NCBI GenBank assembly: GCA_043771685.1
Contig: JAYVGX010000034.1
Coordinates: forward strand, 11,690 to 75,689
Reading direction: 5' to 3'
Length of the DNA stretch: 64,000 bases
DNA from: Minisyncoccota bacterium
GTDB taxonomy: Bacteria; Patescibacteriota; Minisyncoccia; Phycocordibacterales; UBA9973
Shown: positions 1,676 through 58,297 of the stretch, in pieces
Numbering within the stretch: the stretch's first letter is position 1
How the letters are laid out: the number at the start of each line of letters is the position of its first letter
Translations under genes and position numbers: made by a program
Notes under the pieces: generated by a model
The model's database searches: none
Told to the model about the DNA's origin: nothing
The model's input: the letters and a program-made list of their open reading frames with translations, nothing else

Positions 1676-2911
1676 ATGAAAATCCTTGCTATAGAAACAT
1701 CTTGCGACGAGACAGCTTTATGTATTGTCGAGATGAATCAAGAAAATAACCAAATAAATATAGAGATACAAGCCAATGAAATAGCATCCCAGATAGCACT
1801 CCATGCACAATACGGTGGTGTCTACCCTGCTATGGCTAAACGCGAGCACGTCAAAAACATTTACCCGATTTTAATCCAAGTTTTAAAAGAGAGTAACAAT
1901 TATTTTGAAAGTAAAGACAGTTTTAGTAAAGAGCAAACAGAAAAATTAAAAGAAATTCTAAACCACGAACAAGAATTGTGTGATTTAATTTTAAACTCGT
2001 CGAAATTAGAAAAACCAGACATAGACAACATCGCTGTGACTTATGGTCCAGGGCTCGAGCCAGCACTTTGGGTTGGAGTCAATTTTGCGCAAGCGCTTTC
2101 ATATATCTGGGATATACCACTTCTACCGGTCAATCACATGGAAGGTCATTTAGTTTCGAGTTTACTTCCAATTTACGAAAAAAATAAAAAAATAATTTTA
2201 AAAGAAATGCCAGAAAGTGCAATTGGCCTTTTGGTTTCTGGTGGTCATACACAAATAGTAAAAATAGAAAATAAAAACCAATACGAGATTATCGGACAAA
2301 CTGTCGACGATGCCGTCGGCGAGGCTTATGACAAGGTAGCGCGCATGCTCGAACTGCCTTATCCAGGAGGACCACAGATTTCAAGGCTGGCAGAGATGGG
2401 GCGAGAAGCTCCCCTCCTTATCGAGGAGGGGGTTGGGGGTGGTGATCTAAAAATTAATCACCACCCCGCCTTATCAGGCACCCCTCCTCGTCAAGGAGGG
2501 GGTATCAAATTCCCTCGCCCGATGCTTCACTCAGGTGATTATAATTTTTCTTTCTCAGGATTAAAGACTGCAGTGTTGTACTATATACGTGACAATGAAA
2601 TAAAAAATGAAGAAGACAAAGTAAATATAGCACTTGCTTTCGAAGACGCAGCTGTCGGCGTTCTCGTTTCAAAAACAATGCATGCATTAGAAGAAAATGG
2701 TGCGACTCATTTACTGCTCGGGGGTGGAGTCAGTGCTAATAAACATTTACGATCAGAACTTTTACAGAAATGTGGTGAATCTAATGTAACAATCTATGAA
2801 CCAGTCCGCGAAATAACCGGCGACAATGCTCTGATGATCGCAATGGCAGGATTTTTAAACCCACAAACAACAACACAAAAAGTCACAGCGCAAGGTAATT
2901 TGTCTTTGTAA
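1676..2911 (+). CDS. tsaD: tRNA N6-adenosine threonylcarbamoyltransferase TsaD (Kae1/YgjD family), carrying a ~36-aa in-frame GC-rich insertion.
   Basis: MKILAIETSCDETALCIV, HMEGHL, VSGGHTQ and DFSFSGLKTAV motifs. The insertion REAPLLIEEGVGGGDLKINHHPALSGTPPRQGGGIK lies between the conserved AEMG and FPRPM segments. Confidence 0.9.
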   Translation: MKILAIETSCDETALCIVEMNQENNQINIEIQANEIASQIALHAQYGGVYPAMAKREHVKNIYPILIQVLKESNNYFESKDSFSKEQTEKLKEILNHEQELCDLILNSSKLEKPDIDNIAVTYGPGLEPALWVGVNFAQALSYIWDIPLLPVNHMEGHLVSSLLPIYEKNKKIILKEMPESAIGLLVSGGHTQIVKIENKNQYEIIGQTVDDAVGEAYDKVARMLELPYPGGPQISRLAEMGREAPLLIEEGVGGGDLKINHHPALSGTPPRQGGGIKFPRPMLHSGDYNFSFSGLKTAVLYYIRDNEIKNEEDKVNIALAFEDAAVGVLVSKTMHALEENGATHLLLGGGVSANKHLRSELLQKCGESNVTIYEPVREITGDNALMIAMAGFLNPQTTTQKVTAQGNLSL

Positions 2912-2940: not shown

Positions 2941-5118
2941 ATGCCTGAATACAAAGAACCAAATATTGATAAGAAATTTCTAAAACCATACGACGCCAAT
3001 GAAACTGAAAAAAGGATTTATGAACTTTGGGAGCAAAGTGGTCTATTCAACCCAGATGTATGTGTAGAAAAAGGTCACACTAAAGGTGATGCACTTCCCT
3101 TTACTATCATCATGCCTCCAGCTAATGCCAATGGAAATCTACACGCAGGACACGGTTTAGTTATGACTATCGAGGACATCATCACTCGTTATAAACGCAT
3201 GCAAGGATATAAAGCACTTTGGTTACCGGGACTCGACCATGCTGGTTTTGAAACTCAAGTTGTTTATGAAAAAAAATTAGAAAAAGAAGGACGCTCTCGT
3301 TTTGGTATGGATCGAAATGATTTATACAAAGAAATTTTAGATTTCACAAAAACTAATTCTGTAAATATCCAATCACAGATCCGTGATATGGGTGCTTCTT
3401 GTGATTGGTCACGCGAACAATTCACACTCAATGACAATATAATTAAAACAGTTTACAGTACGTTTAAAAAACTAGAAAACGATGGTCTACTTTATCGTGG
3501 TAAAAAAATAGTGTCTTGGTGTAGTAAACATCAAACATCATTTTCTAATTTGGAAATACTAGATGAAGAAAGAATAGAACCATTTTATTATTTAAAATAC
3601 GGACCATTCATAATAGCTACATCTCGTCCTGAAACAAAGTTCGGTGACAAATACGTTGTCATGCACCCAGACGACACTCGCTATAACCAATACGAACATG
3701 GACAACAATTAGAATTGGAATGGATCAATGGTCCTATCACGACAACTGTTATAAAAGACGAAAGTGTCGACATGGAATTTGGGACTGGAGTCATGACCAT
3801 CACCCCGAACCACGACCAAACAGACTTTGAAATCGCTCAGAGATACAACTTGGACCACGAACAAGTAATAGATGATAACGGTAAATTATTAAACATAGCA
3901 GGCGAATTCTCAGGTTTACATATAAATAAAGCCCGACCTCTTATAATAGAGAAACTGCAATCAAAAGGACTTGTGGATAGAATCGATGAGAACTATAAGC
4001 ATGTAGTCCGAACTTGTTATAAATGCAATACAATTATAGAACCACAAATAAAAAGTCAGTGGTTTATAAATATGAAGCCATTAGCAGAAAAAGCTCTCGA
4101 GAAAATAAACGCTGATGAAATAAAATACATACCTGAGCATTACAAGAAAGTAAGCGTTGCTTGGCTTGAAAATATAATGGATTGGAATATCTCTCGTCAG
4201 ATTGTTTGGGGTATACCGATACCAGCGCAAATATGTGACAGTTGTGATACAGGCTATGTAGACCTAGACAATACTATAAAAACTTGTAAAAAATGTGGCA
4301 AAGAAACAAGAGCAGATGTAGACACTTTTGATACTTGGTTCTCGTCTGGTCAGTGGCCTTATGCGACTCTTGGTTTTCCTGATAATCCAGACTTTAAAAA
4401 TTATTATCCGACCGATGTTATGGAGACAGCCGGAGAAATTATTTTCTTTTGGGTTTCTCGGATGATCATGCTCGGACTTTATGTTACAGGAGAACTCCCT
4501 TTCAAAACTGTTTACTTGCATGGATTAGTCCTTGATGCAAAAGGTAAAAAGATGAGTAAAAGTAAAGGTAATGTTATAAGCCCTTTAGACTTAACAGCCA
4601 AATACGGTACCGATGCATTTCGAATTGGTTTGATAGTTGGAAATACTCCTGGAACTTCCCTTGCACTTTCTGAAGACAAGATACGAGCTTATAAAAACTT
4701 TGCTAACAAGCTCTGGAACATAACTCGCTTTGTTTTAAGTTCAACAGAAGATGTCAAAATAGATTATGATTTTATAAATTATTCTGAAAATGATAAAAAT
4801 TTGATAAAAGAAAGAGATGAACTGATAAATGAATTAACAAAAGAAATGGATGAATTCAAATTCTATATTGCTGCCGAGAAAACATATCATTATATTTGGG
4901 ACACTTATGCAAGTACGATACTCGAAGAAAGTAAAAAGATATTTGAAGATACTAGTGATGAAAATAAAGTTTCTCGCCAGCAATTCTTGCTTCACACTCT
5001 AGAAAAGATTTTAATAATATTGCATCCTTTTATGCCATTTGTCACAGAAGAGATATGGCAAACGTGGAAAAACAACAACAGTATTTTAATGGTCCAGAAA
5101 TGGCCACAAAATAAATAA
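2941..5118 (+). CDS. valS: Valine--tRNA ligase. Short form of 725 aa that lacks the usual C-terminal coiled-coil extension.
   Basis: Class I HIGH-type region PPANANGNLHAGH, then ITRYKRMQGYKALWLPGLDHAGFETQ, DTFDTWFSS and KMSKSKGNVI. All match ValRS signatures. Confidence 0.85.
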   Translation: MPEYKEPNIDKKFLKPYDANETEKRIYELWEQSGLFNPDVCVEKGHTKGDALPFTIIMPPANANGNLHAGHGLVMTIEDIITRYKRMQGYKALWLPGLDHAGFETQVVYEKKLEKEGRSRFGMDRNDLYKEILDFTKTNSVNIQSQIRDMGASCDWSREQFTLNDNIIKTVYSTFKKLENDGLLYRGKKIVSWCSKHQTSFSNLEILDEERIEPFYYLKYGPFIIATSRPETKFGDKYVVMHPDDTRYNQYEHGQQLELEWINGPITTTVIKDESVDMEFGTGVMTITPNHDQTDFEIAQRYNLDHEQVIDDNGKLLNIAGEFSGLHINKARPLIIEKLQSKGLVDRIDENYKHVVRTCYKCNTIIEPQIKSQWFINMKPLAEKALEKINADEIKYIPEHYKKVSVAWLENIMDWNISRQIVWGIPIPAQICDSCDTGYVDLDNTIKTCKKCGKETRADVDTFDTWFSSGQWPYATLGFPDNPDFKNYYPTDVMETAGEIIFFWVSRMIMLGLYVTGELPFKTVYLHGLVLDAKGKKMSKSKGNVISPLDLTAKYGTDAFRIGLIVGNTPGTSLALSEDKIRAYKNFANKLWNITRFVLSSTEDVKIDYDFINYSENDKNLIKERDELINELTKEMDEFKFYIAAEKTYHYIWDTYASTILEESKKIFEDTSDENKVSRQQFLLHTLEKILIILHPFMPFVTEEIWQTWKNNNSILMVQKWPQNK

Positions 5119-58265: not shown

Positions 58266-58297
58266 AACCCCTTCTGAATTTACAGAAGGGGTTTTTA
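58266..58297 (+). terminator. Rho-independent terminator after the yerC-like gene.
   Basis: CCCTTCTG-loop-CAGAAGGG followed by GTTTTT. Confidence 0.65.

Follow-up and report, generated by a model that had tools for sequence, protein, structure and literature searches.

The 64,000-nt stretch of Minisyncoccota DNA analysed here (the window; contig JAYVGX010000034.1, positions 11,690 to 75,689) contains tsaD, the gene for a subunit of threonylcarbamoyladenosine (t6A) synthase. Within this gene lies a segment of about 100 nt that is built of GC-rich hairpins and leaves the reading frame intact. The locus raises the question of what such a segment is: a part of the enzyme, a signal in the RNA, or a passenger in an essential gene. 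We consider it likely that the tsaD segment is a dispersed, non-autonomous, selfish palindromic repeat that is translated as a harmless loop, with DUF559 as its candidate cognate enzyme; the enzyme, taken by itself, is proposed more tentatively. Insertion polymorphism, dispersal over many genes, a single usable frame, and an association with DUF559 genes across phyla were all observed.

The insert in tsaD

The gene, the inserted codons and the parts of the element lie at the following positions (ORF, open reading frame; H1 to H4, hairpins).

1676-2911, plus strand: tsaD ORF, host of the element (411 amino acids, from the ORF list)
2405-2497, plus strand: codons of residues 244-274 (EAPLLIEEGVGGGDLKINHHPALSGTPPRQG), 31 amino acids absent from solved TsaD structures
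2403-2508, plus strand: whole element (core 2408-2503), delimited by family covariance model R1
2411-2431, plus strand: hairpin H1, CCCCTCCT-TATCG-AGGAGGGG, 8 bp, motif match
2435-2446, plus strand: G-tract GGGGGTGGTGAT, which ends the left unit and supplies the 5′ arm of H2, invariant in the family
2436-2467, plus strand: hairpin H2, GGGGTGGTGAT-N10-ATCACCACCCC, 11 bp, 93% paired in the family
2468-2479, plus strand: mini-hairpin H3, GCCT-TATC-AGGC, 4 bp, covariation in relatives
2481-2501, plus strand: hairpin H4, CCCCTCCT-CGTCA-AGGAGGGG, 8 bp, right unit, inverted relative to the left

Homologs of the window protein carried Pfam domain PF00814, were named TsaD in their source records, and came mostly from Patescibacteria (the candidate phyla radiation). 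E. coli TsaD structures 4WQ5 and 4YDU matched the window protein with an E-value of 1e-69, and an alignment of homologs showed that every family-invariant residue was retained. The E. coli alignment covered query residues 108-243 and 275-395, with a jump from chain residue 191 to 193. Because it stops at 243 and resumes at 275, residues 244-274 have no counterpart in solved TsaD. The AlphaFold model of the window protein had a mean predicted local distance difference test score (pLDDT) of 88, with 90-98 in the majority of 10-residue blocks once the insert and the C-terminus are set aside. For residues 247-274 the pLDDT was below 50 and no secondary structure was present; the model predicts that the insert maps onto a disordered surface loop.

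Comparison with close relatives revealed filled and empty alleles of the site. The insert was present in homolog P0001 (92% amino acid identity to the window TsaD), and the site was empty in P0002 (85% amino acid identity; gene 90.4% identical in nucleotides) and in loci L001 and L002, which are 90% identical in nucleotides to the window gene. The empty allele had 6 AT-rich codons (TNSASQ) where the filled allele has 33, a net difference of 27 amino acids or 81 nt. The three tsaD lineages were approximately equidistant (90.4, 88.9, and 88.6% nucleotide identity), the empty one being the nearest to the window. A second filled/empty pair was found in KsgA: L143 and L267 were filled, and L266 (89% amino acid identity) had NKNKIT codons instead. 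Both pairs showed replacement of 6-18 nt and no duplication, the exact ends being uncertain. Divergent Patescibacteria TsaDs (~50% amino acid identity) had this DNA element in the corresponding loop, and L006 and L007 had a second copy at a different tsaD site. We dismissed an assembly artefact because 12 contigs, drawn from several samples of the same metagenome series, encode the identical 411-amino-acid protein.

Covariance model R1, built on 42 Patescibacteria copies, scored the window tsaD copy at 110.6 bits (E-value 1e-24); the runner-up in the window scored 10.8 bits. The fold of 2390-2530 had a free energy of -81.8 kcal/mol (z = -8.0), and none of 200 shuffles was equally stable. Two copies of a ~36-nt unit, inverted relative to each other, make up the element. 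The left unit consists of H1, a 3-nt linker, and GGGGGTGGTGAT; the right unit runs in the order ATCACCACCCC (C-tract, 2457-2467), H3, H4; and the paired unit tails form H2. Single units occur besides doublets. The mutually inverted left and right units constitute terminal inverted repeats, and the flanks TTTxCT and GARRAAA lengthen the complementarity. Each unit starts with ..CT-CCCCTCCT and finishes with GGTGAT, and neither GTAG nor CGTC is present among the invariant columns.

An earlier reading of the DNA made from its letters and ORFs (the sequence-only reading) had described a triple hairpin of ~60% GC that adds 36 residues to TsaD in frame. Its repeated motif CCCCTCCT-N5-AGGAGGGG was indeed found twice in the window, at 2411-2431 and 2481-2501 with starts 70 nt apart, with 0 matches expected from 100 dinucleotide shuffles. 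The motif GGGGTGGTGAT-N10-ATCACCACCCC lay between them at 2436-2467, and the insertion was in frame and stop-free within the 411-amino-acid tsaD ORF. All three hairpin motifs thus stand; their count does not, for H3 (2468-2479) is a fourth hairpin. The GC content of 2405-2505 was 56%, lower than claimed, against 38.7% in the remainder of tsaD and 33.7% in the whole window. The figure of 36 added residues gives way to 31 relative to E. coli TsaD and to a net 27 relative to the nearest relative with an empty site.

Searches for other signals in and around the segment were negative. Among flank pairs the longest common substring was 4.36, compared with 4.27 in shuffled pairs, which gives no sign of a target-site duplication at ends that are themselves uncertain. 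With Rfam 15, the only matches at gathering score in the window were two tRNAs, and the element gave only far-sub-threshold matches to miRNA hairpins. Intein blocks were absent from the 31-amino-acid peptide, and no Rfam intron matched the 93-nt segment. An outer stem around the insert (GGGGCGAG/CTCGCCC) consists of conserved TsaD codons (..GR.., FPRP) and was not kept in other copies, and was rejected as a coincidence. A reading as DNA-uptake sequence was also dismissed, the element being too long and too rare.

Other inserts were found in the same proteins. Approximately 19 of the top 120 TsaD homologs carried unrelated in-frame inserts of 20-35 amino acids in the same loop (P0008, P0036, P0060, P0015, P0052/58, P0066, P0072, and P0120; also L265:3001-4146). 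One such family reads '..GSLAQxDEAS..ADGNxxP', and the insert DNA of P0036 was also rich in hairpins (-45 kcal/mol across 162 nt). The length of Patescibacteria KsgA (RsmA) ranged from 252 to 353 amino acids as a result of multiple in-frame inserts at several sites (P0126, P0127/P0131, P0133/P0137, P0188/P0200; L158:993-1883). These included other hairpin-type families ('LPLPSLPLAKGEV..' and 'NPLLISPFAGGEDTPMIRGAGG'), and N-terminal tandem 'ARAKKALGQKT' repeats also occurred. In the KsgA of P0126 a small insert was nested inside the H2 loop of the element. Since the KsgA and TsaD loops host unrelated insert families, they are evidently permissive loops that collect insertions, and several repeat families seem to collect in the TsaD loop. 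TsaD residues ~75-107 (~1898-1996) form a second segment of ~33 amino acids that is missing in E. coli TsaD; it is predicted to be helical with high confidence. It is the site at which P0004 and P0018 carry their second copy of the element.

Dispersal of the repeat and constraint on its hairpins

A metagenome scan was performed with a pattern for the left half of the element, CTCCTT-N3-GAGGAGGGG-N3-GGGGGTGGTG. It returned at least 120 loci, and all counts from it are samples, not censuses. At least 122 instances were obtained, comprising 40 full four-hairpin elements (doublets) and 82 half units (singlets), distributed as follows.

Full elements (n = 40): 32 in ORFs of at least 100 amino acids, all in one frame (..PLLxEEGVGGGD..TPPxKGGE..); 8 outside long ORFs
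Half units, H1 and G-tract only (n = 82): 31 in ORFs in the same frame; 9 in another frame; 42 outside long ORFs

Thus 63 of the 122 sampled instances lay in frame inside ORFs of at least 100 amino acids. These 63 host ORFs matched 55 Pfam families, and the host genes included MnmA, PheT, TopA, KsgA, MurB, PurD, FtsK, NadE, Tgt, LepA, and MurI. The translated frame was stop-free in 40 of 45 full copies, and the remaining five frames were open in 2-20 of the 45; the window copy, read from its sequence, has one open frame out of six. Only the translated frame is survivable within a gene. Several copies could occur close together: the covariance model found four per ~10-kb contig in L145, three in L237, and likewise three or four in L179. 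Some within-contig pairs were mutually closest, with 95% and 90% identity relative to a between-locus median of 74%. Neither the covariance model nor the motif detected a second copy in the 64-kb window. A 40-amino-acid profile of the insert peptide searched against a set of 5.8 billion proteins gave 2 matches among 809 candidates and missed the TsaD proteins known to carry the insert, probably through filtering for low complexity or bias.

Half and full units were also compared at single sites. At the same position of PurD, one of the loci L072 and L162 had a full element (..EEGVGGGDSKENHLVLKDTPPSKGGEED-IVIFHAGT) and the other had '..EEGGGGGD-IVIFHAGT' only; an internal deletion may therefore have turned doublets into halves, or doublets may have arisen from halves. 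Several intergenic half units (L130, L244, L169, L188, and others) had a T-run, GGTGATTTTTTTT, directly after the unit, suggesting that some of them may double as terminator-like signals.

Covariation was tested on the 42-copy alignment, with shuffles (n = 500) and register-shifted pairings as controls. In the four local hairpins 96.2% of cells were paired and 26 cells were changed on both sides, a result reached by none of the 500 shuffles; the register-shifted controls had only 51-68% of cells paired. H1 was invariant across the 42 members (99.7% of cells paired), as was the G-tract. H3 showed compensatory changes at three of its four pairs (e.g. GTCC..GGAC, GCCC..GGGC, GGCT..AGCC), and the peptide changed alongside. 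In H4 one pair switched jointly between C-G and U-A (UA in 34 sequences, CG in 7). Long-range pairing of H1 with H4, present in the minimum-free-energy fold of the window copy, was rejected for the family because the compensatory change in H4 breaks that pairing (34 of 42 copies were unpaired at the switch). The covariation shows that the hairpins are under constraint as nucleic-acid structures.

The element of the window and that of L003 were identical at 95 of 96 nt. Third codon positions differed between them at 0 of 32 sites in the element, whereas elsewhere in the gene the figure was 23.5% (P ~2e-4). With near-identical sequence and frozen third positions, the element is therefore either younger than the surrounding gene or far more constrained. 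Near-identity of copies between lineages would be due to recent spread, gene conversion, or selection on the element itself.

Relatives in other phyla and the DUF559 gene

The pattern GAGGAGGGG-N3-GGGGGTGGTG was used to scan a genome collection and returned at least 120 loci, again a sample. The upstream complementary arm was not part of the pattern, and nearly all of the listed matches bore it as well. Within Patescibacteria the unit was hosted by Nomurabacteria, Paceibacterota, Saccharibacteria, and Portnoybacteria. Outside, its hosts were many Sphingomonadales (several contigs per genome), Acidobacteriota (Terriglobia), Ignavibacteriota, and others. The H1 stem and the G-tract were identical across phyla, and the full doublet architecture recurred there. 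In many sphingomonad copies (L012, L015, L024, L036, L037, L077, L088, and others) the C-tract and H4 were separated by a further conserved module, GCTGCGACTAGG-(variable small hairpin)-CAAGTCTCGC, which was absent in Patescibacteria copies.

Paired units flanked DUF559 genes in Sphingomonadales, Acidobacteriota, and Ignavibacteriota as well as in Patescibacteria. The units of four sphingomonad loci and one Kapaibacterium locus were 368-495 nt apart, and the interval was a DUF559 ORF. The nested ORFs matched Pfam PF04480 (E-values 1e-28 to 2e-36) and PDB 3HRL (4e-15) and carried the motif EIDGxxH. Over all fetched loci, an H1-like hairpin lay within 300 nt of 22 of the 25 DUF559-like ORFs, on both sides in 17, and 13 of the 25 ORFs were in low-GC loci of Patescibacteria type. 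The Patescibacteria composites L248 and L219 had the order H1-GGGGTGGTGAT, ATG, DUF559, ATCACCACCCC-H4. DUF559-bearing relatives had GGTGAT 3-5 nt upstream of the DUF559 ATG, a sequence that is complementary to the 3′ tail of 16S rRNA. DUF559 proteins of Patescibacteria and sphingomonads were 40% identical, whereas the flanking stems were identical. In Patescibacteria the DUF559 gene occupied positions of conserved synteny (glyS-DUF559-M16 peptidase; metG-DUF559-tatD-rpsF-ssb), and the orientation of the flanking units differed among orthologous loci. These neighbours (metG-tatD, glyS-M16) were sought in the window and were not there. In a published classification, VSR, DUF559, and DUF2726 belong to a single clade, and a homing endonuclease of a group I intron falls within it (Steczkiewicz 2012, PMC3424549). 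For a Caulobacter DUF559 protein, a role in mismatch repair similar to that of Vsr has been suggested (PMC12907096).

Mobile replicons gave little. Among viral contigs 13 matches were obtained, mostly of sphingomonad type in high-GC contigs and several of them chance G-rich sequence, with no copy of Patescibacteria type and no DUF559. BLAST searches returned one partial record for the sphingomonad composite against plasmids and no match for the window element against phages.

Other features of the region were recorded. The gap between tsaD and valS in the window is 29 nt (2912-2940). It lacks the additional minus-strand gene of 123-146 amino acids found in the tsaD-valS interval of relatives (L001:11170-11541, L002:1422-1793, L003:11223-11663). 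The valS-like ORF (2941-5118) has just 725 amino acids, a length equal to that in relatives L002 and L007. A perfect hairpin at 58268-58291, CCCCTTCTG-AATTTA-CAGAAGGGG, is unrelated to the element (10.6 bits with the covariance model, a non-member) and is possibly a terminator.

Origin of the repeat and its candidate enzyme

As the filled and empty alleles suggest, the element would have entered the variable linker of TsaD, between the 'YPGGP..LAE..R' helix and the 'FPRPM' motif, and replaced a few AT-rich codons there. Judging from its frame, it would be transcribed and translated into a Gly/Pro-rich disordered loop of ~31 amino acids, which TsaD would tolerate because the linker accepts insertions and the element has one mostly stop-free frame. 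The in-frame, stop-free state would then reflect survivorship rather than a function in TsaD, the copies in essential genes being the survivors that lie in disordered loops. Because DUF559 genes are flanked by the same hairpin units, as genes for REP-associated tyrosine transposases (RAYT) are by repetitive extragenic palindromes (REP), we infer that the DUF559 protein, a Vsr-like PD-(D/E)XK endonuclease, may be the cognate enzyme; this step is tentative and falls somewhat short of probable. Such a nuclease would recognize the unit CCCCTCCT..AGGAGGGG together with GGGGGTGGTG, and might nick G-T-containing H2 hairpins extruded on single-stranded DNA, comparable to Vsr at T:G mismatches. Repair would then place repeats at new sites with small target deletions and no target duplication. 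Speculatively, repair-templated copying after a break would fit the replacement of codons without duplication better than would DDE-type transposition. In the gene-dense genomes of Patescibacteria, the visible survivors would be in-frame loops of essential proteins such as TsaD. More broadly, DUF559 proteins might be the cognate nucleases of cross-phylum repeats resembling REPINs (REP doublets that form hairpins), which would make a second, independently evolved partnership of enzyme and repeat beside RAYT/REP; we regard this as possible, not probable.

Several points weigh against a selfish repeat served by DUF559. The 64-kb window has only one copy of the element and, when searched, no DUF559 gene; the H2 loop of the tsaD copy is 10 nt long. 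Neither a target-site duplication nor a defined target was found, and what was replaced is 6-18 nt of fast-evolving linker. We infer transposition rather than observe it directly, and occupancy of the same loop at ~50% protein identity could be partly old vertical inheritance. Translation of the insert is deduced from the frame and not from proteomics. The loci behind the DUF559 statistic were selected by the motif, with a pattern that does not include DUF559, and are not an unbiased sample. In Patescibacteria, DUF559 genes lie at conserved syntenic positions and are therefore not themselves hopping, and adjacency is no proof of catalysis.

A competing explanation accepts a real and dispersed repeat and denies that DUF559 is its enzyme. 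The repeat would have spread by a single-strand transposase of IS200/IS605 or RAYT type, by recombination or repair copying between copies, or by template switching during replication. DUF559 genes would then simply lie nearby often, or be cargo, and would use the hairpins as ribosome-binding site or terminators. This is a serious possibility, though we do not think it probable. It accords with the lack of DUF559 in the window, the fixed synteny of Patescibacteria DUF559 (glyS-M16 peptidase; metG-tatD), the Shine-Dalgarno-like GGTGAT 3-5 nt ahead of the DUF559 ATG, and the variable orientation of units at orthologous loci. IS200/IS605-type elements typically have hairpin ends and produce no target-site duplication, and none was found here. 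However, the unit flanks DUF559 in at least three phyla though the proteins are only 40% identical, the REP tag GTAG/CGTC is missing, and no transposase-like ORF was noticed beside the units in ~1.5 Mb of fetched loci, in which no systematic search was made. If instead the hairpins act in mRNA, by ribosome pausing or by stabilizing or processing the transcript, it would have been recruited as a cis-regulatory RNA module and the element would not be a passenger. The very stable fold (z = -8), the covariation, an excess of G-U pairs over A-C mismatches on the sense strand (59 vs. 23), and the Shine-Dalgarno-like GGAGG and anti-Shine-Dalgarno-like CCUCC arms are consistent with this. Most of the G-U cells come from one inherited column, however, no Rfam family matched, and a module that recurs in dozens of unrelated genes, in spacers between genes, and around DUF559 genes speaks against a role specific to one gene. 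An mRNA role, which we consider improbable, would in any case be compatible with a selfish repeat and not exclusive of it.

Three further explanations have much less in their favor. The insert would be a lineage-specific functional extension of TsaD, e.g. a partner-binding loop whose GC content comes from Gly, Pro, and Arg codons, if one considers that several divergent Patescibacteria TsaDs have similar peptides in the same loop and that the frame is always kept. This is very unlikely in view of the 90%-identical relative that lacks the insert, the same DNA in ORFs of 55 Pfam families, many functionally unrelated to TsaD, and the disorder predicted by AlphaFold. Compensatory changes also preserve the hairpins while the peptide varies, third codon positions are frozen, and other TsaDs have unrelated insert families in this loop. 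Still less credible is a segment that escapes translation through intron-like removal from the RNA or through ribosome skipping, as in the GC-rich 'byp' elements of yeast mitochondria and phage T4 gene 60. GC-rich hairpin clusters in AT-rich coding sequence do resemble byp elements, which is an analogy only. Removal would make needless the single frame kept in 32 of 32 full ORF copies and open in 40 of 45; no Rfam intron or ribozyme matched, ~100 nt is too small for a group I or II intron, and the 31 amino acids have no intein motifs. An assembly artefact or chimera at the repeat has a negligible probability. Mis-joined contigs can arise at repeats, and the DNA comes from a metagenome-assembled genome, but 12 independent contigs from several samples encode the identical 411-amino-acid protein, homologs align collinearly with the intact ORF to either side of the insert, and the insertion also occurs in relatives.

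A selfish repeat of this kind has parallels among known systems. Like Rickettsia palindromic elements (RPE), it is a palindromic repeat of ~100 nt in coding genes of a reduced genome, lies in frame, is tolerated in essential proteins, appears from its frame to be translated as an extra surface segment, and varies in presence among close relatives. It differs from RPE in its host phylum, its high GC content in an AT-rich genome, its defined unit doublet, its relatives in multiple phyla, and its link to DUF559; because its host belongs to Patescibacteria, it is at most an analogue of RPE. With REPs and REPINs it shares short GC-rich hairpin units that occur as singlets and as inverted doublets folding into a larger hairpin. 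It shares with REP/RAYT systems a small nuclease gene flanked by units, and Patescibacteria DUF559 genes hold conserved positions like single-copy, vertically inherited RAYTs. The flanked gene, however, encodes a DUF559/Vsr-like PD-(D/E)XK endonuclease (PF04480) and not an HUH Y1 transposase, and the tsaD-type repeat lacks a GTAG/CGTC tag. REP units carry such a conserved tetranucleotide at their end (Di Nocera 2013, PMC3733652). Many tsaD-type copies are intragenic and in frame (63 of 122), whereas REPs are extragenic, and the unit is conserved across phyla, whereas REPs are species-specific. The ORFs between units resemble the Vsr/DUF559/EDxHD clade in being DUF559 with EIDGxxH, a clade that includes homing endonuclease I-Bth0305I (PDB 3R3P); they differ in having no intron or intein context, and the window copy has no ORF at all. 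We know of no activity of these DUF559 proteins on hairpins. In fungal mitochondria, GC clusters, byp, and double-hairpin elements are GC-rich hairpin modules that invade AT-rich genomes, coding regions included. Those modules are organellar, and the byp elements break the frame and are bypassed, whereas the tsaD repeat keeps the frame and translation through it is the simplest reading. Bacterial miniature inverted-repeat transposable elements, among them the intragenic RU elements of enterobacteria, Correia elements, and enterobacterial repetitive intergenic consensus elements, are likewise small and non-autonomous, with inverted ends, a stable fold, and occasional intragenic copies with an open frame. 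In the tsaD-type repeat, by contrast, no target-site duplication was detected, and longer relatives carry a DUF559 endonuclease of another fold instead of a transposase. To our knowledge, no parent insertion sequence with a DDE transposase exists for the tsaD-type repeat.

The sequence-only reading had likened the segment to RPE and had named as checks whether it is lineage-specific, lies in a surface loop, and recurs elsewhere in the genome and in relatives. The likeness gained support from the ortholog, loop, and dispersal analyses: P0002 (90% identical in nucleotides) and solved TsaD structures lack the segment, and residues 247-274 form a disordered excursion with pLDDT below 50. In relatives with this peptide, the coding DNA is the same GC-rich hairpin sequence and not a run of AT-rich codons. 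The motif does recur, in relatives' ORFs of 55 Pfam families, and has no second copy in the 64-kb window. The claim that such elements are undescribed outside Rickettsia-like contexts was too strong for the kind, as small intragenic in-frame repeats (RU elements) have been reported in enterobacteria (Delihas 2007, PMC2759123). Of the family itself, no prior description was found in the full text of the searchable, incompletely covered literature.

The finding accounts for unusual low-complexity segments rich in Gly and Pro, and for differing protein lengths, in Patescibacteria (342-457 amino acids for TsaD and 252-353 for KsgA among close homologs), both of which distort annotation, alignment, and structure prediction. 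The insertions provide a natural map of insertion-tolerant loops in essential enzymes, and filled/empty polymorphisms of co-occurring populations are usable as strain-level markers in population genetics. The link between the repeat and DUF559 in Patescibacteria, Sphingomonadales, Acidobacteriota, and others offers a concrete hypothesis for a very common uncharacterized bacterial domain. In-frame colonization by palindromic repeats is not specific to Rickettsia; it recurs in another reduced, gene-dense lineage.

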